Shown here: positions 5,960 through 58,241 of the stretch, piece by piece
How positions within the stretch are numbered: position 1 is the first letter of the stretch
Layout of the letters: the number at the start of each line of letters is the position of its first letter
DNA from: a virus
Lineage: Duplodnaviria > Caudoviricetes
IMG/VR virus record: IMGVR_UViG_3300036791_001402
Location: 1-63,760 of that record
DNA length: 63,760 nt
Reading direction: 5' to 3' (one strand)
Notes under the pieces: model-generated
What the model was told of the DNA's origin: nothing
The model's database searches: none
The model's input: only the letters and a program-made list of their open reading frames with translations
Program-made: the position numbers and the translations under genes

Positions 5960-6166
5960 TTACCAGTCTTTGGCGTATTCGACCAATTCCTTTTTGCTTT
6001 TACGCTTCTTCTTGGCCTTCCCGCGAGGACGCCCACGGGGCTTAGCGCCGTTCCACATCCGGCTGGTGCAGCGGGGACATTTCTGCGGGTCGGTGAGCGA
6101 TTCCCACTCCCACGCGCAGACCTCGCACCGGCAGTGCTGCACCTCGCGCACAACGGTGGTGATCAT
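5960..6166 (-). CDS. Zinc-ribbon protein with AT-hook-like basic tail
   Basis: CEVC...W...CPRC...W followed by KPRGRPRGK; ATGA overlap with the recombinase. Confidence 0.7.
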   Translation of the reverse strand: MITTVVREVQHCRCEVCAWEWESLTDPQKCPRCTSRMWNGAKPRGRPRGKAKKKRKSKKELVEYAKDW

Positions 6167-6822
6167 GTGACCTCCTTCTGGCTGGCGAGGATCTTGCGGA
6201 TGGTGCCGCCCGACCACGGAAGCCCGGAGCGGCTGAAGTGCTGTCCGTTATTCAACTGTCCGGCGATGGCTTCGCTCTTGAAACCGGTCTCCGCGAGGGT
6301 GAGCATCGTGGCAAGGATCATGCCTTCGCCGGGATAGGTGCCGTAGGGCTTGCGCCCCTCGCAGCGACCCTCCTTGGCCTTCTTGCGCTGCCGTGCGCCC
6401 CGGAGCTTGAGGACGATCATGGCCTTCTCGTATTCGGCGATAGCGCCGAAGATCTGCCGCACCAGCTTGCGCGAGGGATCCTCAGAGCAGAGGTCCGGCT
6501 CACAGGTGGAGATGAGCGTATAGCCGCTCTTCTTCATGTCGGAGATGATGGTTTCCGACACCATCAGGTCACGGGCAAGCCGGTCGAGCTTCTCAACGAT
6601 GATCGACTTGACTCCGTTTTCGGCGAGTGCGGCGAAGAGTTCGGCGAGGGCCGGACGGTCGTCCAATTCCTTGGTGCCGGAGACGCCTTCCTCGCGGAAG
6701 ACTTCCACGATCTCGATGCCGTTGGCTGCGGCGTATGCCTGGCAAGCCAGCAACTGACGGTCGAACCCGTCGCCTTCCACCTGGCCTTTGCCTGAGACCC
6801 TCAGGTATGCGTAAGCTTTCAT
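6163..6822 (-). CDS. Serine recombinase (resolvase/invertase family)
   Basis: YLRVS catalytic Ser motif, EEGVSG, RPAL, KLDRLAR, GRKPYG. Confidence 0.93.
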   Translation of the reverse strand: MKAYAYLRVSGKGQVEGDGFDRQLLACQAYAAANGIEIVEVFREEGVSGTKELDDRPALAELFAALAENGVKSIIVEKLDRLARDLMVSETIISDMKKSGYTLISTCEPDLCSEDPSRKLVRQIFGAIAEYEKAMIVLKLRGARQRKKAKEGRCEGRKPYGTYPGEGMILATMLTLAETGFKSEAIAGQLNNGQHFSRSGLPWSGGTIRKILASQKEVT

Positions 6823-9038: not shown

Positions 9039-9532
9039 TTGCTCATCTCCCACAGGAAGGATTTCCCGACGACGACGGGTTGCACTGTGACACCGTTCCA
9101 CTCGCGGAGATCATCGAAGGTGGTGATCTCCGGTTGGAAGCCGGGATAGACCGTCTCCCGCCATTTAGTGAAAACCAACCGCTGGGCTTCCTTGCGGTCA
9201 TGCGAGATCGCCATCACCGTATAGCCCCCGGCATCGCACATGCCCACGAAGACCGTCTCAGGTTCAGGTTGACGGTCGGGGGCGGCGACCTCGCGAGGGA
9301 CGACCGGATGGAGTCGGGCCATAAGGGCTTCGCGTTTGGCACGACCAGCGGCTAAAGCGGTTTCGCGGTCAGGGAAGGGTTTGTTGTCGCCGACGCTGAT
9401 GAAGCGCAGGAATTTGGTGAAGGGTTTGCCGGTGCGCTTGTTTCGCGCTGTCATGTATTCCCGAATCGAGCAGTAGAATCCGCCGATCCCTGATGCGCTG
9501 GTTCCGATCTTGTAACGCTCACTTGCTTTCAT
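9035..9532 (-). CDS. Hypothetical protein, first gene after ribozyme G
   Basis: ATG 9532 lies 12 nt after the ribozyme; GGAAAGAGA leader. Confidence 0.7.
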   Translation of the reverse strand: MKASERYKIGTSASGIGGFYCSIREYMTARNKRTGKPFTKFLRFISVGDNKPFPDRETALAAGRAKREALMARLHPVVPREVAAPDRQPEPETVFVGMCDAGGYTVMAISHDRKEAQRLVFTKWRETVYPGFQPEITTFDDLREWNGVTVQPVVVGKSFLWEMSK

Positions 9533-9544
9533 AGTTCTCTTTCC

Positions 9545-9597
9545 GTGCCATTGGTTGAAGCTCAGGTGCGCCACGCGAAGGCTGGACACTTGCACCC
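9545..9597 (-). ncRNA. Minimal HDV-like self-cleaving ribozyme, copy G
   Basis: GGGTGC-AA-GTGTCCA-GCC-TTCGCGT-GGC-GCACCT-GA-GCTTCAA-CCAA-TGGCAC; P1 with G.U first pair, P2 with one bulge, P3, P1.1 UC/GA, J4/2 CCAA. Confidence 0.82.
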
Positions 9598-9622
9598 GCC
9601 CGGATTCGCTCCGGGGCAGCGG

Positions 9623-9862
9623 TTAATCTGCGTCCTGCATCCAGCGTGGATGGTCGTCGCGGATGTCGTCTATCGTGTAGCGCCCCACGCGTTGCATGAG
9701 GATCTCGTTAGCCTGAGACTCAAATCCCGTTGCCACTTCGAGAATGGGCGCATGGAAGCTATTGCCATTGCGACGGTGAGGGATTCCATGCTTGTCGAGT
9801 TGCCGTTCAATCCACGACAGTTTCGGTTCGTTGGTTCGCTTGCAAAACAAGACATAGTCCAT
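9623..9862 (-). CDS. Hypothetical protein
   Basis: TAATG-coupled to the upstream gene; SFHAPIL motif. Confidence 0.65.
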   Translation of the reverse strand: MDYVLFCKRTNEPKLSWIERQLDKHGIPHRRNGNSFHAPILEVATGFESQANEILMQRVGRYTIDDIRDDHPRWMQDAD

Positions 9863-10350
9863 TACTTACCCCCTTTGTAGATTGCCAAGGCGGTTTCCAT
9901 GGGCAGCAGGTTGAGGATCTGGACCGCCTTTAGCTTGGCGGGGGTCTGGGGGTCGCGCAGATAGGTGCCGACCTGCGCGGGAGTCAGTTTGCGGGTCTCG
10001 AAGATGCCCTCGCTGCCGACCTTGGTGAAGAGGATCTTGTTAGTCATGGCGCGTTTCAGGTCTTTGGCTAGAAGGTGATCTTCGAGCAGGTCGCCGATAA
10101 GGATGTCGGCATCCTGCGGGTAGGTTTCAGTCGTGCCGTCGCCCATGTCCATGGCGACCGGCGGGAGCGTGGCGGCATACTCGGCCAGGCGGGTTTCCAG
10201 GGCGAAGGGCTGATAGAAATTCGGGCCGCCGTGCCCGTCGTTGCGGACGTCTCCAGCACGTTTGCCGTCGATGTAGATGGTGGCCTCGAAGCAGTGGGTT
10301 TCCTCAGAGGCGAATGCCGCCCGTTTGATGTTCCTGAGTTCGATCTTCAT
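9862..10350 (-). CDS. Conserved phage hypothetical protein (SEETxCFEA...NDGHGG)
   Basis: ATG 10350 lies 14 nt after ribozyme F; the 407-aa call is an upstream extension. Confidence 0.75.
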   Translation of the reverse strand: MKIELRNIKRAAFASEETHCFEATIYIDGKRAGDVRNDGHGGPNFYQPFALETRLAEYAATLPPVAMDMGDGTTETYPQDADILIGDLLEDHLLAKDLKRAMTNKILFTKVGSEGIFETRKLTPAQVGTYLRDPQTPAKLKAVQILNLLPMETALAIYKGGK

Positions 10351-10364
10351 GAGTTCTCTTTTCC

Positions 10365-10417
10365 GCTTGATTGGTTGACGCTCAGTCCCGCCGACGTGAA
10401 GGCTCAAGCTTGGGACC
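10365..10417 (-). ncRNA. Minimal HDV-like self-cleaving ribozyme, copy F
   Basis: GGTCCC-AA-GCTTGA-GCC-TTCACGTC-GGC-GGGACT-GA-GCGTCAA-CCAA-TCAAGC. Confidence 0.85.
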
Positions 10418-10708
10418 ATCCCCCGGAATCCGGTACTCGCGTTCAAGGCGTTCGTTCGATGCCTTGACCATTTCGACCGTGAGCGGGGGTTGCGGCTTGA
10501 ATCCCTCCAGCTTGCGCTCCACCCAATAGAGGACTGCGGTACGGGTTCCGGTGTAGCCCTGAAAGACTCCATCGAACGTGTAGATGACTCCGGGGTCGGG
10601 TTCGGGATAGTCGGCATATACGGCATCAGCGACCGTGACCTTGTGACCTTTGACCGTGGTTTGCATCCATTCGCCGACGACGCGGAAATCGGATAAGCGG
10701 CATCCCAT
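10382..10708 (-). CDS. Hypothetical protein whose last codons and stop lie inside ribozyme F
   Basis: GGAGG RBS; ORF reads ...IPGDGPKLEPSRRRD* with TGA at 10384-10382. Confidence 0.6.
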   Translation of the reverse strand: MGCRLSDFRVVGEWMQTTVKGHKVTVADAVYADYPEPDPGVIYTFDGVFQGYTGTRTAVLYWVERKLEGFKPQPPLTVEMVKASNERLEREYRIPGDGPKLEPSRRRD

Positions 10709-11023
10709 CTATTTGCCCTCCGTGAGTGCAGCCAAGGCTGAAGCGATGTTGTCGCCCTCATAGAGGGTCTGGCAGAGTTCAGGTGGGTAATCCTCAAATC
10801 CGCCGACCGCCTGATAGACGCGATAGCGGGGCAATGCCATCTCCCGCTGATCCGGGTCGGGATGGTCCGACCAGATCTCGCGGGAGTCGATGGGGTCGGG
10901 GGTAACGAAGCGGGGGCAGACGTCGTTGTGCCACGATTCGTCGCTGAGCTTACCTGATTGAACGAGGGAGAGGATCTCCGGGGGAACGTTGTAGTCGGAT
11001 GCGAATTCTTTACGCCATGACAT
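10709..11023 (-). CDS. Phage hypothetical protein (DxSWHNDxCP motif)
   Basis: ATG 16 nt after ribozyme E; DESWHNDVCPRF, DHPDPDQRE. Confidence 0.75.
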   Translation of the reverse strand: MSWRKEFASDYNVPPEILSLVQSGKLSDESWHNDVCPRFVTPDPIDSREIWSDHPDPDQREMALPRYRVYQAVGGFEDYPPELCQTLYEGDNIASALAALTEGK

Positions 11024-11039
11024 GCTGTTTTCTCTTTCC

Positions 11040-11091
11040 GCTGATTCGGTAAACGCTCAGTCCCGCCCCGTGAAGGCATCAGCATGGGACC
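11040..11091 (-). ncRNA. Minimal HDV-like self-cleaving ribozyme, copy E
   Basis: GGTCCC-AT-GCTGAT-GCC-TTCACGG-GGC-GGGACT-GA-GCGTTTA-CCGA-ATCAGC. Confidence 0.85.
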
Positions 11092-11120
11092 ATGCCCCGG
11101 AATGACTCCGGGGGTTAGTG

Positions 11121-11603
11121 CTACGCCCTCACGGTCGCACCGTGGGCCACAGACGCGTTATAGATGGCATCTACGACCGCTGCCAGATCAATGCAGTCGG
11201 TTCCGACCTCGACCCATACCCCGTTGCCGTCGCCGACCAGACCGCCGTCGGCATCGCTGTCGTCCGCGCCCCATTTGTCGCCTGAGGTTCCCCACACCAG
11301 TTCGCCCTTGTCGGTCTTGAGAACGGAGACGCACCAGATGCCCCCGCCCGTGTGCATCAGACCAGCGGTCAGTCTTTTTGCGGTCAAGGCCGAAGCGATG
11401 GCCTCCATCCATTCGGTGCCGTAGTCTTCGCGGACGGATTCGCCCAGACCTTCCTCGACTTCGTTGAGCATGTCGGTGAGCCATCCGGCGACGGTCTCGC
11501 GGACAGGGTCGTTTTCTTCAGCGGGGATCTCCGCCTGATTGTCGAGCCAATTGCCGACGAGGTCATAGAACTTCTGGGCGCGAATCCTGTTCAGTGTGTC
11601 CAT
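11121..11603 (-). CDS. Acidic hypothetical protein (HTGGGIWC motif)
   Basis: ATG 11603 lies 17 nt after ribozyme D. Confidence 0.72.
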   Translation of the reverse strand: MDTLNRIRAQKFYDLVGNWLDNQAEIPAEENDPVRETVAGWLTDMLNEVEEGLGESVREDYGTEWMEAIASALTAKRLTAGLMHTGGGIWCVSVLKTDKGELVWGTSGDKWGADDSDADGGLVGDGNGVWVEVGTDCIDLAAVVDAIYNASVAHGATVRA

Positions 11604-11620
11604 CGTGTTTTCTCTTTTCC

Positions 11621-11672
11621 GCTGATTTGGTTGTCGCTCAGTCCCGCCACGAGAAGGCATCAGCTTGGGACC
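11621..11672 (-). ncRNA. Minimal HDV-like self-cleaving ribozyme, copy D
   Basis: GGTCCC-AA-GCTGAT-GCC-TTCTCGT-GGC-GGGACT-GA-GCGACAA-CCAA-ATCAGC. Confidence 0.87.
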
Positions 11673-11699
11673 GTATCCCGGCATGGCCGGGATGGTTGC

Positions 11700-12026
11700 T
11701 CAGGCGAAGGTCTTGAGCCACGCTGCTACGATCTCTTCATGGATATCGACGTCGCTCGACAGCGTGGTTGATTTCGACTCATGCGTCTCGCCTTCGTCGT
11801 AGGCTTTGCGGGAAGCGTAGACGTCGCCATCCCACGTCTCATTGGCGTCTCCGAATGCGACCACGGTCCCGTCGGGCATGTCGGTAATGATGACCGTCAC
11901 GTTGCTGTCGGCGAGGGATTCGCTGGGGAATCCGTGAGCGGTGAGTTGCTTGGCGACCCAGTCCATTTCGGCGAGGTGGGTCGAGAAGGCGTTGTCGTCC
12001 ATTGCTTCATATTTCGCGATGCTCAT
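11700..12026 (-). CDS. Acidic hypothetical protein
   Basis: ATG 12026 lies 14 nt after ribozyme C. Confidence 0.72.
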   Translation of the reverse strand: MSIAKYEAMDDNAFSTHLAEMDWVAKQLTAHGFPSESLADSNVTVIITDMPDGTVVAFGDANETWDGDVYASRKAYDEGETHESKSTTLSSDVDIHEEIVAAWLKTFA

Positions 12027-12040
12027 TGGTTCTCTTTTCT

Positions 12041-12093
12041 GCCTGATTGGTAGTTGCTCAGTCCCGCGAACGTGAACGCTCAGGCGTGGGACC
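12041..12093 (-). ncRNA. Minimal HDV-like self-cleaving ribozyme, copy C
   Basis: GGTCCC-AC-GCCTGA-GCG-TTCACGTT-CGC-GGGACT-GA-GCAACTA-CCAA-TCAGGC; P3 covaries (GCG/CGC). Confidence 0.85.
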
Positions 12094-12109
12094 ATCCCCG
12101 TGAGGGGAG

Positions 12110-12262
12110 TTACTGCAACTCGTCCGCTGGACGGTCCCAGTTGATGCTGTTGACGAAGGTGTCCTGAAAGTCGTGCCCACAAGTGTGTTGGGCGTATTGG
12201 TGCGCGTAGTTGTGTGTTTTGCAGGAATGTGTACCTGTGATGCAGTTGGTAGGCAGGTTCAT
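12110..12262 (-). CDS. 50-aa Cys/His-rich small protein
   Basis: ATG 12262 lies 14 nt after ribozyme B; stop just before the hairpin of copy C. Confidence 0.65.
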   Translation of the reverse strand: MNLPTNCITGTHSCKTHNYAHQYAQHTCGHDFQDTFVNSINWDRPADELQ

Positions 12263-12276
12263 CGATTCTCTTTTCC

Positions 12277-12328
12277 GCACATTCGGTAGTTGCTCAGTCT
12301 CGCCACGTGAAGGCATGTGCTTGAGACC
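12277..12328 (-). ncRNA. Minimal HDV-like self-cleaving ribozyme, copy B
   Basis: GGTCTC-AA-GCACAT-GCC-TTCACGT-GGC-GAGACT-GA-GCAACTA-CCGA-ATGTGC. Confidence 0.88.
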
Positions 12329-12349
12329 ATCCCCGCAAAGGGGAAAAGG

Positions 12350-12562
12350 TTAGTCGATTAGCGCGTCAATGGTTTGGCGTGCATAGTTCCACGATTGAGT
12401 GGACGGAACGCGATGAATCATCTGCCCGTCTTTTTCAATCCACATGTCGCCCGTGAGTGCATTGCGACGAACGAGGTATCCGCGATAGGCCATGCGGGAA
12501 AAGTCGACAGTCTGCAATGCTGCCAACGCTGCCATACTGCGATAGGTACGCTTAGTGGTCAT
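12350..12562 (-). CDS. Small hypothetical protein
   Basis: AAGGA RBS before ATG 12562. Confidence 0.65.
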   Translation of the reverse strand: MTTKRTYRSMAALAALQTVDFSRMAYRGYLVRRNALTGDMWIEKDGQMIHRVPSTQSWNYARQTIDALID

Positions 12563-12614
12563 GAGTGGTAATCCTTCTACCCATGATATCCCGCATGGGT
12601 ACGGCATTCAAGAG

Positions 12615-13343
12615 TTATGCTGCGATGGAGATCTGAACCAATTGGGCGACAGGGACCACGAATCCGCTCGTGTCTTTCTTTGCTGGACCTTTAGCGCGTA
12701 GTCCAATGACCGAACCCTTGTATCCGTCCAGAAAACGAAGGTCGTGCAAGTCGCCGTCAATGACCGGACGTCCAAGGAAAGTCGAAGGCAGGGGGGAACC
12801 TTTCTTTGTGTCGAAAACGACTGCCACATTCAACCCATGGTCCAATGCACGCATGGTCTCGGCTTCGTTGGTCTCAGAATGAGAAAACGTCAAGTGATAG
12901 TTCGGAGTAACGCGTTCCCATGCGCGTGCATGCTTCGTATAGTCGTAGAAAACCACGTTCGGGAATTCGCTTGCCATCATCAAAGCTAACCATGGAAGGT
13001 CGGACGTCCCATTGACCCGTACCGCAGGGATAAGCTTTTCCCGTTTAGCCTTGCGAATTAAAGCTTCAATCGACCAACGCATCGAAGCAAGGAATCCTTC
13101 CCTGTCATCGAACAGAAAGTGAGTCTTCGCAATGCGCTGCCGCACTATCGTGGGGAATGCTCCCCGTCCAGCTTTGAACAAACAAACGTTGCGGCATCCT
13201 TCGCTCGAATCAGTGCAGAGGTTCCCGCGTCCACCCTCAGAAGCGGGGGCAAGGTAAAGAATCCCGGTTAAATATCCCAAAGACTCGCCCTTGCTAGTCT
13301 TCGCATTTTCGGTGGTCAATAGTGCGCGATACTTCGTTGTCAT
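12615..13343 (-). CDS. Gene-product-88 (Gp88)-like Cys-containing protein
   Basis: NAKTSKG, GILYLAP, C-x5-GC-x3-C, RVNGTSD, FYDYTK, YHLTFS, DGDLHDLRFLD, GLRAKG. Confidence 0.8.
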   Translation of the reverse strand: MTTKYRALLTTENAKTSKGESLGYLTGILYLAPASEGGRGNLCTDSSEGCRNVCLFKAGRGAFPTIVRQRIAKTHFLFDDREGFLASMRWSIEALIRKAKREKLIPAVRVNGTSDLPWLALMMASEFPNVVFYDYTKHARAWERVTPNYHLTFSHSETNEAETMRALDHGLNVAVVFDTKKGSPLPSTFLGRPVIDGDLHDLRFLDGYKGSVIGLRAKGPAKKDTSGFVVPVAQLVQISIAA

Positions 13344-13357
13344 TCCGTCTCTTTTCC

Positions 13358-13409
13358 GTCGATTCAGTAGTTGCTCAGTTCCACCACGTGAAGGTATCGA
13401 CTTGGAACC
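13358..13409 (-). ncRNA. Minimal HDV-like self-cleaving ribozyme, copy A
   Basis: GGTTCC-AA-GTCGAT-ACC-TTCACGT-GGT-GGAACT-GA-GCAACTA-CTGA-ATCGAC; P1, P2 and P3 all covary versus other copies. Confidence 0.88.
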
Positions 13410-13427
13410 ATTCCCCCGCAGGGGAGG

Positions 13428-13646
13428 TTAGAAAACACACCAACGGACTATGTCATTCCACGACCATCCCGAACGACCTAACGCGTCCAATATCCGCTGG
13501 GTTTGAAACAACTTGTCTTCCCCAGCCATTTCGACATAGACATGTGCCGTACCTTCGCAAGTGACATCCAACCCACTCGCCCTCAAACGTTGTGCGGCAG
13601 ACTCAACTACAGTCGGACCACAGTAAACCCTGTATCGCGATGTCAT
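13428..13646 (-). CDS. Small hypothetical protein, first gene of the leftward operon
   Basis: Purine-rich leader (AAAGGAAAGGGAAAA) before ATG; stop precedes the hairpin of copy A. Confidence 0.65.
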   Translation of the reverse strand: MTSRYRVYCGPTVVESAAQRLRASGLDVTCEGTAHVYVEMAGEDKLFQTQRILDALGRSGWSWNDIVRWCVF

Positions 13647-13693
13647 TTTTCCCTTTCCTTTCTGTCTCTTGCACCGTCTTTGCTGCCCTAACC

Positions 13694-13724
13694 ATTATAC
13701 GGGTAAATCGGACGAATTTATCAT
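13694..13724 (-). promoter_or_regulatory. Putative sigma70 promoter for the leftward operon
   Basis: Perfect TATAAT on the minus strand at 13699-13694, about 48 nt before ATG; -35 weak. Confidence 0.45.
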
Positions 13725-14319
13725 CTCTCTACACATTTATTCCAACTATTTTCGACCATCCTAGTGTTGATTCGATTGCATTTATCCATAGCACGTGCGC
13801 CTGGTAAACGCGTTTTCAAAAATGCGACAGCTCTGTCGCTTTTTCAAACGTGGGAACCACTTCGTTTTTCGTTTTTCGGAATGCCATAGACGGCGAAAAT
13901 CTAGACCGCTAATTATGCTCAATCCGACCGGTCGCCCGGTCGCAGATCTGAGGGCGATCTGAGGTCTCAAAATTCGGTTTAGCAGCCTTTTGGATTGTCG
14001 CCCGGAAGGTCGATTGTCGAGTCGTTTGCGCCTAATCCGTAGAATTGGCGCGGACACTGTAAATACGGGGGAATCTGAGGGCGACGACAGGTCGGGGAAT
14101 ACTTGGAAAGAGGTTCCCATGGGGGCGACCTGTCGTTTTCGGGGGCTTGGGTTTGGTTTGGCGCGGGATTCTTTGTCCGCGACCCGCCGGCCGCTCGTCG
14201 ACGGCGACGCCTTCAGCCTTTCGATCCGCGAAAAACAAAAAAATAAAAAATGGGAAAGGTTAAAAAGCGGGAGTATAGTTTGTTTCCATGAATTGGGAAC
14301 CATAAAAGGGAAGCAATAA

Positions 14320-14763
14320 ATGGGAAACCTGAAAATGGACACCATGAAGATTTTGCGTTGCAAGCGATGTGGACGGGAGTGGTGTTCGCGGCGGGAGCAT
14401 CCGGTTCGGTGCGGGGTATGCCGGTCGCCTTACTGGGATCGGGAGAGGAGGGGGAATGGAAGTGGATCTGAAGTTATTGAGCGCGGGGTTGGTGGAGTGG
14501 CGGGAGCAGTTGCGGACGGAGGTGGGGACGGAGTTGCGGTGTCCGTTTTGCAAGAGGCCGAGGGTGCGAAGGAGCGATTACATTCGGTGCAATCCGTGTG
14601 CGACGAACTGGCTGGACGAGGAGCGGGGGTTGCGGGATTATCTAAATCGCGACCCGGGGGCGGCAAGGGCGGAGGGGCGGCGAGGTGCGATAAGCCTGGT
14701 CACAGCGGATTCCAGCGGACGGACGGGTGGTGGTGCAACCAGTGCGGGGTGATGTACCGGTGA
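14320..14763 (+). CDS. Zn-ribbon protein (N-terminal CxxC..W..CxxC..W; C-terminal C..H..CxxC)
   Basis: CKRCGREW...CGVCRSPYW resembles the ORF at 5960-6166. Confidence 0.55.
   Translation: MGNLKMDTMKILRCKRCGREWCSRREHPVRCGVCRSPYWDRERRGNGSGSEVIERGVGGVAGAVADGGGDGVAVSVLQEAEGAKERLHSVQSVCDELAGRGAGVAGLSKSRPGGGKGGGAARCDKPGHSGFQRTDGWWCNQCGVMYR
14456..14752 (+). CDS. Zn-ribbon protein nested in another frame of 14320-14763
   Basis: GAGGAGG RBS; CPFC...CNPC. Confidence 0.55.
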   Translation: MEVDLKLLSAGLVEWREQLRTEVGTELRCPFCKRPRVRRSDYIRCNPCATNWLDEERGLRDYLNRDPGAARAEGRRGAISLVTADSSGRTGGGATSAG

Positions 14764-16220: not shown

Positions 16221-16681
16221 TCGAGATTGAGAAGAGCATTACGGCGGACACTCGGTCCTGCGATTACAGCAAGGTGACCAAGGACCAGCTACACCAGAGC
16301 AGCGTCCAGCACATTAACGATGTCAGGAAGGCTCTGGGCTTTTTTTGCGAACAACTCCACCTCGCCAGTCTGCGGCACGACTACGACAAGCTGACGGAGA
16401 TTGACTGGTTCCACGCCGACTTTGTGACCGGGTTCAAGGAGACGGGGTGGTGGGACAACCACCGCAAGGTGAACCGCCACCACTTGCTCGAGGCGGACGG
16501 AGTGCCGGAGGACGTGAACCTCGTGGACGTGCTGGACATGATCGCCGACTGCGTGATGGCGGGGATGGGGCGCACGGGGACGGTGTACGCGCTGAACATC
16601 GAGCCGGAAGTGCTGATGAGGGCGTTCAGGAACACGGTGGAGTTGCTGAAGGCGCAGGTTCGGGTGAAGGACGAGGCGTGA
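16217..16681 (+). CDS. HD-like (DUF5662-type) hypothetical protein
   Basis: RHDYDKL, HRKVNRHH, NLVDVLDMIAD. Confidence 0.65.
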   Translation: MIEIEKSITADTRSCDYSKVTKDQLHQSSVQHINDVRKALGFFCEQLHLASLRHDYDKLTEIDWFHADFVTGFKETGWWDNHRKVNRHHLLEADGVPEDVNLVDVLDMIADCVMAGMGRTGTVYALNIEPEVLMRAFRNTVELLKAQVRVKDEA

Positions 16682-17040: not shown

Positions 17041-18459
17041 ATGGCGGCTTACTACAACGAGAACGATGGGGCCAAGGCGGCGTGGCTCAGGGAACTGGTG
17101 AAGGCGGGACTGATCGCGGCGGGAGACGTGGACGAGAGAGGGATCGAGGATGTCCGAGCAGATGAGCTTGTGGGATACCGGCAGTGCCACTTCTTCGCCG
17201 GGGTCGGAGTCTGGAGCTACGCTCTCCGGTGTGCGGGGTGGGAAGACGAAAGGGAAGTCTGGACGGGATCGTGTCCCTGCCCGAGCTTCAGTGCCGCCGG
17301 AAAAGGCCGAGGGTTTGGAGACCCTCGTCACCTCTGGCCTCATTGGGCGCGACTCATCGGGGAGCGTAAGCCTCCAGTGCTCTTTGGAGAGATGGTTAAT
17401 GCCGCGATTGGACATGGCTGGTTCGACCTTGTTCAAACTGACCTGGAAGCACAGGAATACGCCGTTGGGAAGGCGGTATTTGGCGCATGTGGCGTCGGCG
17501 CACCGCACATCAGGATGCGGCTCTACTTCGTGGGCGAGTGCATGGCCCAGTCCCAATCGTGGGGACGACAACAACAGTCGCATCCCGCTGGAGAATATTC
17601 AGGCCTATTCGGAGCGCAGATTGTCGCGGGAGAACGCCTGCAGCCAACTGGCGGACACCGCCCAGGCGCTGGCGGCGTGGCCCACATGCGCGGCCTCAGA
17701 CGGCAACGGGGGGAAGGGGCCGCGTCACGGGATGAGTCCGACGGGACAGATGCCGGACGGCACGAAAGCGACGGTAGACCTGTCGGCGGCAGCGAAGATG
17801 CTGGCCGCATGGCCCACGCCCAACGCGATGGAGGGAGGGCAGACCTCGCGGAGCGGGGAGAGGAAGGACGAAGTGCTGATGGGCGGCATGGCGAGACTGG
17901 CGTCGTGGCGCACCCCGGACAGAACGGATTCCGACCGCGGCGTTCATCCTCACCCCGACGCTCAGGCGGGAAGCCATTCGCTGGTAACGGAGTCGGGGCT
18001 GGCGTCGTGGTCCAGCCCCAGCGCGAGGGACTGGAAAGATACTCCGGGGATGGCGACCACGGGGACCGATCCCGACGGGACGGAGCGGGAGAGGCTGGAC
18101 CAGTTGCCGCGTCAGGCGCATCTGAGCGGGTGGCCCACGCCCATGGCGGGGAGTCCGGCGACGGAGGAATACAACGAAGCGGGGAACAACGATTCCAGCC
18201 GCAGAACGCAAGCGTTGGTAATGGAAGTGGACGGCCCGGTGCGGTTAACGGCTTCTGGCGAGATGCTGACTGGCTCCGCTGCCGGGATGGACGGTGGCGG
18301 CCAGCTCGACCCGGCACATTCCCGCTGGTTGCAGGGACTGCCGCCCGAGTGGTGCGACTGCGGGGTTACGGCGATGCGCTCTGCGCGCCGGCCGCGCAAG
18401 CCTTCATCGAAAGCTACATCGACGCCTGTCAGGAAAGGGAAGTGAACGATGGCGTATGA
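17041..18459 (+). CDS. DNA (cytosine-5) methyltransferase, alpha polypeptide
   Basis: FFAGVG (motif I), GSCPCPSFS (catalytic PC), [16 protein letters not shown] (VIII), LRGYGDAL (X). Confidence 0.88.
17150..18445 (+). CDS. Overlapping-frame C5 methyltransferase beta-like polypeptide with six W-P-T-P-type repeats
   Basis: 431-codon open frame inside the MTase; GAGG before ATG; [16 protein letters not shown] resembles motif IX. Confidence 0.72.
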
Positions 18460-51587: not shown

Positions 51588-52832
51588 GTGGCCAACCTGA
51601 AAGTGAAACTGATGTGGATGTGCAAGACCGAAACCGGCTGGCGCCGCTTCCCGGTGATCATGGGCAAGAACGGCAGCGTCAAGCCCCATGCCGTGGTGGC
51701 CGGTGGCCAGACCCGCCTCTACCCCGAAGGGCATTTCGAGATCCGCTGGTACGAAGGCAGCAACAAGAAGTACGACAATGCCGGGTTGAGCGCCCCCGAC
51801 GCCCTCCTCAAACGCGCCCAGAAAGAACAGGAGCTGAGGGTCCGCAGTCAGGCCCGGGAAGCCGGACTGATGATCGTCGAACCGGTGTCGGTCGGCAGCG
51901 ACGGGAGAGTGCGGAAACCCATCCAGAGCGAATTCGACGCCTTCATCCTCCACGTCGAGTCCAAAGGATCCCCGGTCGCGGCCCGGGCCTATACCCTCGC
52001 CATCGATGAGTTTCTGACCGTGCCTTCGGTCGCCGCCAAGCAGTTCATGGATCAACTCTCGCGCTCCGACATGGATGCCTACATGACCCTGCTCCGCAAG
52101 CGGGGCTGCAGCGACCGCACGGTGAAGAACCGCTTTGTGAACGTCAAGGCGTTCTTCATCTTCGCCGGTCTCAACCCGCGCCTGACCGGCTCCCAGGCAC
52201 TGGCGCTCGAAGCCCCCAAATTCGAGAAGCGCACCGTGTCGGTCTACGACCCGGAAGATCTGGCCCTCTTCTTCGCGGCCATCCTGAACCCGCGTTTCTT
52301 TGCCGCCTGTCAGATCATGCTCAACTGTGGTCTGCGCGACAAGGAGATGCGCTACCTCGAATGGCGCAACGTGCATCTGCACGGCCAGCATCCCCGCATC
52401 CACATCGAGGGAGATGAGAAATACCTGTTCAAGGTAAAGAAGAGTGAACAGCGGGACATTCCTCTGCGCGAAGACTTGCTTGAGTTTCTGATTGACTACC
52501 GCAAGCAGCACCCCAGCGACAGTCCTCTGGTTTGTCCCACGTCGAACGGTTGTCCGAATACCCGCCTGTGGTTTCATGTGAAGGCCGCGGCGCGACGGGC
52601 GGGATTGAATTGCGGCTCATGCGCGGCTTGCCGGGAACGGGACGAATGCGAGGCGTGGTATCCGCACAAATTCCGCGCCACCTTCATCACCGGCTGCCAC
52701 GAGGTGATGGGGCTTCGCAGCGTGATGAAGCTGTCCGGGCATTCCACGCTGGGATCGGTGGAACGCTACCTGTCTCCGGCCAGAGACTCGATCATCCGCG
52801 AAAAGCTCAACAAGGTGAAGTTCATCGCCTGA
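51588..52832 (+). CDS. int: Tyrosine integrase
   Basis: CGLRDKE (R), KVKK (K), HKFR (HxxR), SGH, RYL (Y). Confidence 0.93.
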   Translation: MANLKVKLMWMCKTETGWRRFPVIMGKNGSVKPHAVVAGGQTRLYPEGHFEIRWYEGSNKKYDNAGLSAPDALLKRAQKEQELRVRSQAREAGLMIVEPVSVGSDGRVRKPIQSEFDAFILHVESKGSPVAARAYTLAIDEFLTVPSVAAKQFMDQLSRSDMDAYMTLLRKRGCSDRTVKNRFVNVKAFFIFAGLNPRLTGSQALALEAPKFEKRTVSVYDPEDLALFFAAILNPRFFAACQIMLNCGLRDKEMRYLEWRNVHLHGQHPRIHIEGDEKYLFKVKKSEQRDIPLREDLLEFLIDYRKQHPSDSPLVCPTSNGCPNTRLWFHVKAAARRAGLNCGSCAACRERDECEAWYPHKFRATFITGCHEVMGLRSVMKLSGHSTLGSVERYLSPARDSIIREKLNKVKFIA

Positions 52833-56985: not shown

Positions 56986-57732
56986 TCAGTCGATCCACTG
57001 GATGGGTAGCTCGATGAAGTGCCGCTGGTCGAGCGGCTCTACTTCGATGGCCTCTTTGAATGAACGGGCGTTCCTCCAGTCGTTGCCGTTGAGCTTGGCC
57101 CTCTAGGCGGTATAACACCAGGCCATCGAGTCGGCACTATAGAGCAGGGAACGGATGACCCCGGACTCGAGCGAGGTCCGCTTCAATCCGAAACCGTGCA
57201 ACCGCAGATCCGGCCTCCTGAGCCGGATGGCGACCAGAACATCGCGGACCTTGAGCGGCGTTCCATTCCTCTTGCACACCGAACCGACGCCCACCCACAT
57301 GTTCTGCCTGAGCCGCTCCCCGTACATCTCGATGTGGCGCTGATACTCTGCGGGGTCGTATCCCTGCAGCACCGGCATGATGTACACGCCCGTGTCCTCG
57401 CGCAGCAAAGCGTCGTAGCGTTCGATGGTCAGGCGCTGGTGGTCCTCGACCGTCATCCCGGTGCGCTCGAGCATGTGGGGTTCGCACATAAAGTCCTGAG
57501 TGACAGCCGCCAGTAGCGTTCCGCAGTGCTTCCACTTCCTGATCTGAGCCGCGTACTCGCTCACCGGGAAGGGATAGCCGCCGTGCTTCTCGATAGTCGA
57601 GAACGCCCCGGAATCGAGGATCCACCGGTTGACCTTCATCGACCTGCGGCACCGCAGACGGTGGATGGAGATGAAGGCATGGTCGATGTGCCGTGCATCA
57701 GAAGGCTGGTGAAGTCCGGTGAAGAAGATCAT
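56986..57732 (-). CDS. TGT-fold / DpdA-like (DUF7221-type) protein, interrupted by an in-frame TAG at 57105-57103
   Basis: LDSGAFS, QDFMCEP, PVLQG, VGVGSVCKR, LHGFGLK, SADSMAW; frame continues 38 codons past TAG. Confidence 0.75.
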
Positions 57733-58241
57733 GTGAACAAGGACTCCATGGTGCCGCACGACTGCTCCGCCGCCGGCATCGCCGTCACAGGAAGGTGCAG
57801 GGTCAGAAAGCCTTTTTTGGTGCGATAGGGGCAGCGGACAAACCCCGCCCTCAGGTAGCAGCGCCCCGGATCCCGTTTGGGACGAATCTTGGCGGCATCG
57901 ATAAAAGTCACCATCGCAATTACGTTGTTGCAATGAGGACACTGAATGTAGGGCGTAAACCCCCACCACCACGAGGTCGCGGCCAGAGCTTCGCGGATCA
58001 ATTGGCTGGCCAGCGGTCCCGACTCGCGCCGGAAGAGGACGTTGATCCACGCCCCCCGCCACGCATGGCTGGCGAAGACCGGCCAGGAACTAACCCAGAG
58101 GGCGGAGCCGGTGATCGAGGTCAGGACGAGGCATCGGCCCGGGGGAACGAACTGGGGACTGTCCGGCGTCTGGCGGTTGTAGTGGCGGTTGGCGATCGAG
58201 AGAGCATGCGGCTCGAAGCGACTGGAGATCTGCCACTGCAT
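57729..58241 (-). CDS. Putative Mom-like/GNAT DNA-modification protein
   Basis: RHYNRQ..QFVPPGRCLVL, FRRE...ASQLI, TFID, PGRCYLRAGF; ATGA-coupled to the DpdA-like gene. Confidence 0.55.
   Translation of the reverse strand: MQWQISSRFEPHALSIANRHYNRQTPDSPQFVPPGRCLVLTSITGSALWVSSWPVFASHAWRGAWINVLFRRESGPLASQLIREALAATSWWWGFTPYIQCPHCNNVIAMVTFIDAAKIRPKRDPGRCYLRAGFVRCPYRTKKGFLTLHLPVTAMPAAEQSCGTMESLFT

Follow-up and report, generated by a model that had tools for sequence, protein, structure and literature searches.

Theta ribozymes are minimal self-cleaving RNAs of the hepatitis delta virus (HDV) type found in Caudoviricetes, more than 80% of them from gut phages, and include a subgroup that cleaves within ±5 nucleotides (nt) of the 3′ end of a transfer RNA (tRNA) (PMC10879173; statements about published systems refer, here and below, to the sections of text cited). 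Four of them self-cleave in vitro and are inactivated by a C-to-U change, and 526 hits are not associated with tRNAs, lie in sense to the nearest open reading frame (ORF) in more than 96% of cases, and have a function that was left open (PMC10879173). In 2011, prophages were reported to contain hammerhead ribozymes clustered on either side of single genes, and these were proposed to divide long phage transcripts into mRNAs of gene length; triple arrangements cleaved in vitro, and one did so in vivo (PMC3088659). HDV-like ribozymes also free the downstream coding RNA of retrotransposons, for which an aid to translation has been proposed (PMC6765202), and ribozymes in the untranslated regions of some RNA viruses are needed for translation initiation (PMC6765202, PMC13725137). 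Here we describe seven short RNA elements in the phage record IMGVR_UViG_3300036791_001402, a complete virus record of 63,760 bases (58% G+C) that we call the window. These elements, spaced along a leftward operon, are probably HDV-like self-cleaving ribozymes without the P4 helix, which would cut an early polycistronic mRNA into eight units.

The window elements resemble theta ribozymes in size (about 50–56 nt), in the absence of P4, in their nested double pseudoknot, in having the catalytic C first in joining segment J4/2 and in occurring in phage genomes; some relatives of the window family also sit at the 3′ end of tRNA-like elements (PMC10879173). They differ in that the window array has no tRNA and places seven copies in one operon within a fixed module of stop codon, hairpin, ribozyme, Shine–Dalgarno (SD) sequence and ATG. 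They may differ too in provenance, since theta ribozymes come mostly from gut phages and the sole run found to hold window DNA, a DNA run labelled soil metagenome, may be its source; no RNA run is listed. This comparison was made with the published text on theta ribozymes. With the HDV and CPEB3 ribozymes, and with the HDV-like descriptor of PMC6326823, the elements share the order of helices, a pair between G1 and a pyrimidine (G1-Y), a P1.1 of two base pairs (bp), a 3-bp P3, a 7-nt loop L3 of the form U..CG and a J4/2 that runs from C to A. Unlike HDV and CPEB3, the window copies have a P1 of 6 bp, a conserved GCN4A instead of P4, one U-A pair in P1.1 and a J4/2 of C-Y-R-A.

The hammerhead clusters are alike in arrangement: several ribozymes in one orientation flank single genes or short blocks of varying identity within one transcript, here with predicted ribozymes. 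The class is HDV-like instead of hammerhead, there are seven copies instead of triples, and the cited text on the clusters gives no uniform hairpin–ribozyme–SD module (PMC3088659). The ribozymes of R2, L1Tc and other retrotransposons without long terminal repeats likewise release a downstream coding RNA from a co-transcript and stay on it as a structured 5′ leader, with a P1 of 6 or 7 bp and P4 sometimes absent; unlike the window array, they are eukaryotic and occur once per element, not as an operon array (PMC6765202, PMC3774820). The original prediction knew of no description of a ribozyme array that punctuates mRNA. That claim falls with the hammerhead clusters of 2011, so the principle of punctuation is not new. 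In the part of the literature that we searched, we found no published HDV-like array in a phage operon (the supplementary hit lists of PMC10879173 may contain such loci); what it returned was the theta and hammerhead work, a review and papers on other subjects. Nor did that search return a seven-copy array with a uniform stop–hairpin–ribozyme–SD–start module, the same design in a second unrelated phage, or a P4-less subfamily with a 6-bp P1 that has both tRNA-like-linked and gene-linked members.

All seven elements, 52–53 nt long and on the minus strand, lie exactly where they had been predicted. We scored them with two covariance models, R1, built from the seven window copies with P1 and P3 as structure, and R2, built from 24 family members with P2 and P3. 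In the order of transcription, the cores are c1 at 13358–13409 (G1 at 13409, with cleavage predicted 5′ of 13409; 67.7 bits with R1 and 65.9 with R2), c2 at 12277–12328 (G1 at 12328; 73.3 and 73.2 bits), c3 at 12041–12093 (G1 at 12093; 68.1 and 66.6 bits), c4 at 11621–11672 (G1 at 11672; 75.5 and 68.7 bits), c5 at 11040–11091 (G1 at 11091; 70.6 and 69.5 bits), c6 at 10365–10417 (G1 at 10417; 72.1 and 67.3 bits) and c7 at 9545–9597 (G1 at 9597; 55.2 and 45.5 bits). Across the window, R1 gives these seven matches at 55.2–75.5 bits with the next best at 7.1 bits, and R2 gives the same number at 45.5–73.2 bits with the next best at 11.7 bits. All lie on one strand; neighbours are separated by 235–1081 nt and enclose one or two genes. 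Their predicted layout stands in outline: a 6-bp P1 opening with a G.U pair, A-N, P2, a 3-bp P3, the loop UUCNCGN, P3′, P1′, GA, GCN4A, CYRA and P2′. It needs amendment in c3 and c6, which have an 8-nt L3 (c3 also has the P3 GCG/CGC), and in c7, which has the P1 GGGUGC/GCACCU and a one-base bulge in P2.

A descriptor search agrees with the models. We used a generic descriptor of a minimal HDV ribozyme, made up of G1, a P1 of 6–7 bp ending in G-Y, a J1/2 spacer, a P2 of 5–7 bp and a 3-bp P3, followed by an L3 of U-N3-C-G, a Watson–Crick P1.1, 3–12 nt, C-N-R-A and P2′. This descriptor, which was composed after the elements had been seen and is not fully blind, recovers six of the seven window copies, and every match is on the minus strand; c7 is missed because of its P2 bulge. 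Shuffling the window 100 times with dinucleotides preserved gave it no match, and neither did 80 unrelated viral loci (950,258 bases).

The family is widespread in environmental phage contigs. A first search pattern, covering the 5′ two-thirds of the element, was scanned over viral contigs, species-representative genomes and metagenome contigs; the metagenome scan, and the totals that rest on it, cover the matches listed and are lower bounds. Most matches in such large collections arise by chance, so they were sorted by the J4/2 tail, which is absent from this pattern. A second pattern, covering the 3′ two-thirds, was scanned over viral contigs and matched 27 viral stretches, among them 21 new loci, and most of the new matches pair perfectly. 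In all, at least about 30 relatives occur in other viral and metagenome contigs. Matches L003, L007 and L008 to the first viral pattern were set aside as chance; L340, L346 and L348 were not counted as members owing to poor pairing, nor was L339, whose P2 is unpaired, and L366 was likewise left out. The original prediction had proposed that an HDV-like descriptor and covariance models be used to look for homologues in related phages, and searches with sequence patterns and covariance models did return relatives, with covariation at 13 of 17 pairs in 30 members.

One of these relatives proved to belong to a second array. Record G006 (77,775 bases, estimated to be 68% complete, and holding L342) carries seven copies on its minus strand within 8.8 kb, with G1 at 18016, 17538, 16258, 13962, 12722, 11084 and 9233 (L358, which is G006:C1:6000-21000). 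Five of the seven are strong. Each has a hairpin ending 0–1 nt before G1 and, 11–17 nt after P2′, a start codon preceded by a GGAGG-like sequence; a stop triplet lies near the start of the hairpin in all seven by reading (a frame-blind count gives five, the other two stops being further upstream). In the copy at 16258, a hairpin of 4 bp and a GCAA loop stands between P1.1 and J4/2, the position of P4 in HDV. The region has no significant protein or DNA similarity to the window array. The module of stop codon, hairpin, element, SD sequence and ATG thus recurs in an unrelated phage. A shorter relative, L365, has two copies.

The pairing of the predicted fold is far above what shuffled or displaced alignments give. 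Among the seven window copies, 94.1% of 119 cells pair on the pseudoknotted structure of P1, P2, P3 and P1.1, and 9 of the 17 pairs show compensatory changes; none of 500 shuffles reaches these values, and sliding the 3′ partner by 1–3 columns lowers pairing to 26–51%. All seven unpaired cells arise because c7 is misaligned by one column. Over 30 distinct family members the figure is 95.3% of 506 cells, with compensatory changes at 13 of 17 pairs, and again 0 of 500 shuffles reach the observed values; P1 pairing in this alignment is lowered by a one-column offset in five rows whose J1/2 or P2 differs in length. Restricting the set to 24 in-register members, which leaves out c7, L335, L336, L343, L344 and L345, gives pairing in 99.8% of 408 cells (0 of 500 shuffles), a figure biased by selection, as 16 of the 18 external rows had been preselected for perfect P1, P3, P1.1 and the inner five P2 pairs and the remaining two were likewise picked by pairing. 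Taken over the three sets, slid controls are put at 29–47%. The P3 and P1.1 helices pair in 100% of cells in the 30 members. In P1.1 the first pair is UA in 27, AU in 2 and GC in 1, and the second is CG in all 30, so that L3 positions 2–3 and the two bases after P1′ occur as UC/GA, AC/GU and GC/GC, with CU/AG in one further relative. This helix covaries in the G006 copies, which is direct support for the second pseudoknot. The covariation of the stems that had been noted from the window alone is thereby borne out for P1, P2, P3 and P1.1, all of which carry compensatory changes (9 of 17 pairs in the seven copies, 13 of 17 in the family).

A test free of this selection comes from the tail of the element. 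The motif N4-AC-Y-R-A, which follows GAGC and is absent from the 5′ pattern, is present in 10 of 204 distinct matches among the matches listed. In eight of these ten, P1, P2 and P3 are all perfect and differ in helix sequence from those already seen; the ninth shows one mismatch in P1 and the tenth two, whereas none of the 194 listed matches without the tail has all three helices perfect. This tail test, together with the window's own copies, is the unbiased evidence for the predicted fold. A folding program limited to nested structures, and hence blind to pseudoknots, gave the seven modules z-scores between −1.17 and +1.06; it chooses now P1, now P2, and retains the upstream hairpin.

The unpaired bases point in the same direction as the helices. 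The HDV-like descriptor of PMC6326823 has a 7-bp P1 with G1-Y, a P1.1 of two C-G pairs formed through L3 positions 2–3, a 7-nt L3 with a conserved U and then C-G, and a J4/2 of C-R-R-A whose C is the catalytic base. In our family, the first pair of P1 is G.U in all seven window copies and in 30 of 30 members, never G-C; both search patterns demanded that U in the rows they found, and it was not demanded of the window copies or of those G006 copies that a covariance model had picked out. All 30 members have the C-G of L3, and 29 have its first U. J4/2 begins with C and ends with A in 30 of 30, with a purine third and C or U second; the J4/2 tail was not part of the first search pattern. The spacer J1/2 is 2 nt (A-N) in all window copies, and in tested ribozymes this spacer is needed, there being no activity without it and little with 1 nt (PMC4908430). 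The P1 helix is 6 bp in every family member, short of the 7 bp of PMC6326823 and within the range of 6 or 7 bp given as typical for R2 HDV-like ribozymes, some of which lack P4 and some of which self-cleaved in co-transcription assays (PMC3774820). The caveat raised at the outset, that a 6-bp P1 departs from the canonical 7 bp, is thus correct as to length and a weaker concern than it had seemed. The nested double-pseudoknot order of HDV and CPEB3 was rightly recognised: all four helices covary, and the conserved unpaired core bases match the descriptor apart from the second base of J4/2 (PMC6326823). As far as sequence analysis reaches, the HDV-like assignment is supported.

The setting of the copies is as regular as their fold. 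All seven share the orientation of the genes, and six of seven junctions consist of a stop codon, 1–7 nt, a G+C hairpin without a run of T, 1–3 nt and G1. The hairpin of c1, at 13412–13425 on the minus strand (as are all features of the module), ends 2 nt before G1 and follows the stop TAA at 13430–13428. That of c2 (12330–12344) ends 1 nt before G1 after the TAA at 12352–12350, and that of c3 (12095–12108) also 1 nt before G1, after the TAA at 12112–12110. Stems of 8 bp precede c4 (11675–11693, 2 nt before G1, stop TGA at 11702–11700) and c5 (11095–11113, 3 nt before G1, stop TAG at 11123–11121). At c7 the stem has 6 bp (9599–9615, 1 nt before G1, stop TAA at 9625–9623). The hairpin of c6 (10423–10433) is weak, with 4 bp and 5 nt before G1, and has no stop codon ahead of it.

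On the other side of each core, a purine-rich leader begins right after P2′ and the ATG follows 12–17 nt 3′ of P2′; the spans given below for the leaders take in the ATG. The leader after c1 (13341–13357) opens with GGAAAAGAGA and leads into the ATG of the 242-amino-acid (aa) gene at 13343–12615, which belongs to the GP88 family. Those after c2 (12260–12276), c3 (12024–12040) and c4 (11601–11620) lead into a 50-aa gene (12262–12110), a 108-aa gene (12026–11700) and a 160-aa gene (11603–11121). The leader after c5 (11021–11039) precedes a 104-aa gene (11023–10709), which is followed by an abutting 108-aa gene (10708–10382); that after c6 (10348–10364) precedes a 162-aa gene (10350–9862), which overlaps the following 79-aa gene (9862–9623). 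The last leader, after c7 (9530–9544), leads into a 165-aa gene (9532–9035), beyond which the genes overlap and no further elements occur. Similarity between window copies extends past the core, as TAACC ahead of the hairpin and GGAAAAGAGAA past P2′.

The operon itself is seen in the gene calls, by reading frame and by G+C content at third codon positions, and starts just after an AT-rich non-coding region at 13.65–14.37 kb. It opens with a 72-aa gene (13646–13428), followed by c1, the GP88-family gene and a 70-aa gene, c2, the 50-aa gene, c3, the 108-aa gene, c4, the 160-aa gene, c5, the 104-aa and 108-aa genes, c6, the 162-aa and 79-aa genes, c7 and the 165-aa gene. Three genes have no ribozyme of their own. 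Two of them adjoin or overlap their predecessor, and the third, which encodes 70 aa (12562–12350), comes after a spacer of 52 nt that contains a hairpin and a ribosome-binding site for it. This junction with the GP88-family gene (12563–12614, minus strand) holds a stop codon, a hairpin with an 8-bp stem and the ribosome-binding site GAAGGA, but no ribozyme, and looks like the ribozyme module minus its catalytic part.

Relatives elsewhere keep parts of this setting. Among 36 members examined, 24 have a hairpin ending 0–5 nt before G1, 20 have a stop triplet no more than 12 nt from the start of the hairpin (frame ignored), and in 26 both an SD-like sequence and a start codon occur within 60 nt; the next start codon is 10 nt away at the nearest and more than 60 nt at the farthest. 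Members other than G006 whose records are complete or long have one copy each, except for four contigs with pairs. One strand of L331 (2144–2338) bears a pair of identical ribozymes at a distance of 143 nt, as is the case in L337, L347 and L349; double cleavage at such a pair would free a 143-nt RNA made up of one ribozyme and 91 nt. In other members a tRNA-like element takes the place of the hairpin, 2–4 nt before G1, a setting like that of theta ribozymes. In L149, L219 and L229 it ends 2 nt before G1 (RF00005, 40.6 bits against a gathering threshold of 29, scored in L219), and a similar element lies upstream of G1 in L330/L341 and L333/L334. ARAGORN calls those of L149/L219/L229, L330/L341 and L333 at lowered thresholds only; at its defaults it found no tRNA in 22 relative loci, and Rfam at gathering thresholds found nothing in 6 relative loci, the 40.6-bit match having come from a more permissive mode. 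These elements (including L219 1672–1738) have good acceptor and T arms and abnormal anticodon arms, one with a 6-nt loop and one with a 30-nt insert, and may be processing signals rather than working tRNAs. The genes 3′ of the ribozyme are homologous between L005/L214 and L149/L219/L229 (44% identity over 195 aa), and the ribozymes of these two groups differ in P1 and P2 by compensatory changes. On this comparison, the pairing of ribozyme and gene appears to have been kept over long divergence.

Several results weigh against reading the elements as active ribozymes that cut this operon. Measured against the descriptor of PMC6326823, P1 has 6 instead of 7 bp, one P1.1 pair is U-A instead of C-G, and the second base of J4/2 is a pyrimidine instead of a purine. 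The whole window has no Rfam match at gathering thresholds, and the best scores to the HDV-class models, all in c2, stay far below them (RF02682, 19.1 against 44; RF00094, 15.1 against 50; RF00622, 10.2 against 35), so that by this criterion the family belongs to no Rfam family. The alignments of RF02682 and RF00094 to c2 do place P3, L3 and P1′ in the right register, and the printed consensus of RF00094 shares CUG-GCAAC after P1′ with c2. At c6, the 108-aa ORF at 10708–10382 has no stop codon before G1; it crosses the hairpin and 35 nt of c6 to a TGA, and the junction (10382–10441, minus strand) reads TACC where the others read TAACC. Efficient cleavage would leave the message of that gene without a stop codon. 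The missing stop could be a recent mutation, a tolerated non-stop product or an assembly error. It also qualifies the claim that each copy sits between protein genes, which is right in that all seven lie inside the operon and six follow a stop codon, and wrong for c6, which the upstream ORF overlaps. In G006, the divergent copy at 18016 (29.3 bits with R2) has A for the conserved C of L3 and a broken P1.1 pair and may be inactive; not every copy need be active. Lastly, the element is present in none of 80 viral loci that hold GP88-family relatives (best match 16.6 bits, E = 0.22), which indicates that the array is lineage-specific and not tied to these genes.

If the elements fold and do not cleave, they would be pseudoknots of the 5′ leader, one per independently translated gene, acting as enhancers of translation or standby sites, as stabilisers of mRNA, or as binding sites for a phage or host protein. 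Such a role would account for the constant 12–17 nt between window element and ATG and for the shared purine-rich leader; it would make the ORF that reads through c6 harmless and the sub-threshold Rfam scores unsurprising, and cleavage is itself deduced from sequence. We consider it unlikely all the same, because conservation among the unpaired bases falls exactly on the catalytic core of HDV and because P1 opens with G.U, not G-C, in 30 of 30 members, which a purely structural helix would not need. A fixed role at the ribosome-binding site is also a poor fit to the relatives, whose start codons lie from 10 to more than 60 nt away, and fits neither the members that follow tRNA-like elements nor the tandem pairs 143 nt apart.

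A role mainly as DNA, with the repeats serving as recombination boundaries for gene cassettes or as promoter or terminator units and the RNA fold incidental, appears very improbable to us. The similarity that reaches past the core in the window, at TAACC before the hairpin and GGAAAAGAGAA after P2′, would suit it, as would flanked genes that are mostly ORFans and mutually unrelated, and two arrays that hold unrelated genes. However, compensatory changes keep four helices intact, which points to selection acting on RNA pairing rather than on DNA sites; even the longest stretches of identity between copies are short, the copies lie on one strand only, the hairpins have no T-run, and a scan for promoters and terminators was not above chance. 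A role as cassette boundary could exist alongside cleavage. As to theta-type trimming of tRNA 3′ ends, the relatives L149, L219, L229, L330/L341 and L333/L334 do lie 2–4 nt after tRNA-like elements, and for some of them this reading may hold. For the window array it already fails and we give it almost no credence, given that neither ARAGORN nor Rfam finds a tRNA in the window, as the original prediction had said, and that the window elements follow the stop codon of a protein gene (absent at c6) and a simple hairpin.

We return to self-cleavage of an operon transcript, and infer that the operon is transcribed as one RNA that cleaves itself, with effects on stability and translation. In this model, a promoter region at about 13.7 kb would drive a single polycistronic RNA. 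Each element, on emerging, would fold into a nested double pseudoknot in which P1 stacks on P1.1 and P2 on P3, and the C of J4/2, together with a metal ion held by the G1.U wobble and L3, would catalyse cleavage 5′ of G1. Co-transcriptional cleavage at each G1 would yield eight RNAs of one or two genes each. Because the hairpin lies 1–5 nt before the cut, the upstream product would end like a terminated transcript, in a G+C hairpin, 1–5 nt and a 2′,3′-cyclic phosphate that would offer 3′ exonucleases little hold. The downstream product would carry a 5′-OH on a paired G1 within a compact pseudoknot, presumably a poor substrate for decay that depends on the 5′ end, and would have its ribosome-binding site directly 3′ of P2′. 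An upstream hairpin helps the genomic HDV ribozyme to fold, and the hairpins here probably also shield ribozyme folding from the preceding coding sequence. Phage T7 and synthetic biology provide parallels: the polycistronic early RNA of T7 is cut at RNase III sites between its early genes, and RiboJ is an engineered insulator of the hammerhead type. The window array would share their logic of a cut between cistrons, a protective 3′ hairpin upstream and expression independent of neighbours; T7 depends on a host protein nuclease for this, and RiboJ is engineered.

In searches of Pfam, PHROGs and NCBIfam, the 242-aa gene belongs to the GP88 family (PF17338, phrog_1617) and the 162-aa gene has a weak match to phrog_17767, a family whose function is not known; no other array gene has a Pfam or NCBIfam family. 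A blastn search of the 4.2-kb array region against 50,697 phage records gave no match. The array genes are dissimilar among themselves, and also to those genes that lie 3′ of the element's relatives, and with downstream genes so unrelated the element is a general cis-acting part and not the leader of one gene family. The AT-rich non-coding region (13647–14368, without assigned strand) lies between the leftward operon and rightward genes and, judging from its sequence, would contain promoters for the two directions, among them a TATAAT-like box some 50 nt upstream of the ATG at 13646. The consensus scan of promoters and terminators found 7 promoter-like sites against 4.3 expected and 10 terminator-like sites against 12.1 expected. 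Also in this region are a 6-bp hairpin at 13824–13839, flanked by T-runs on both strands like a two-way terminator, and a long T-rich tract at 14236–14300 between the divergent operons. Elsewhere, the window encodes a DpdA-family protein (PF23859, DeoxyPurine in DNA protein A; 57103–58062, minus strand), and a tyrosine integrase, a serine resolvase and a DnaB-like helicase (51588–52832 on the plus strand, 6163–6822 on the minus strand and 24–1145 on the plus strand), as well as a protein with a pectate-lyase-like domain. The phage is probably temperate, and may carry a DNA modification.

The role of most natural self-cleaving ribozymes in bacteria and phages is still an open question, and the processing of polycistronic transcripts has been suggested for them, with more work needed (PMC6765202). 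The operon described here offers a clean natural test case: seven near-identical, covarying predicted ribozymes stand in the same module, and the design is repeated in an unrelated phage. We speculate, tentatively and with rather more doubt than attaches to the ribozymes themselves, that some soil phages use a portable, protein-free operon grammar of stop codon, hairpin, HDV-like ribozyme, ribosome-binding site and start codon; seven-copy arrays of this design are present in at least two phages that share no genes. Gene cassettes built in this way would release themselves from the transcript, capped by a 5′-OH pseudoknot at one end and a cyclic-phosphate hairpin at the other, so that the stability and translation of early genes would be independent of host RNases and of neighbouring genes. 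The conserved elements may also be points at which gene cassettes are exchanged. Replacement of the hairpin by a tRNA-like element, as in sister members, would, if true, be a phage counterpart of the tRNA punctuation of mitochondrial transcripts. The family would supply compact, 52-nt natural insulator parts for synthetic operons and, its sole traceable run being a soil metagenome, would extend minimal HDV-like ribozymes beyond the phages of the gut.

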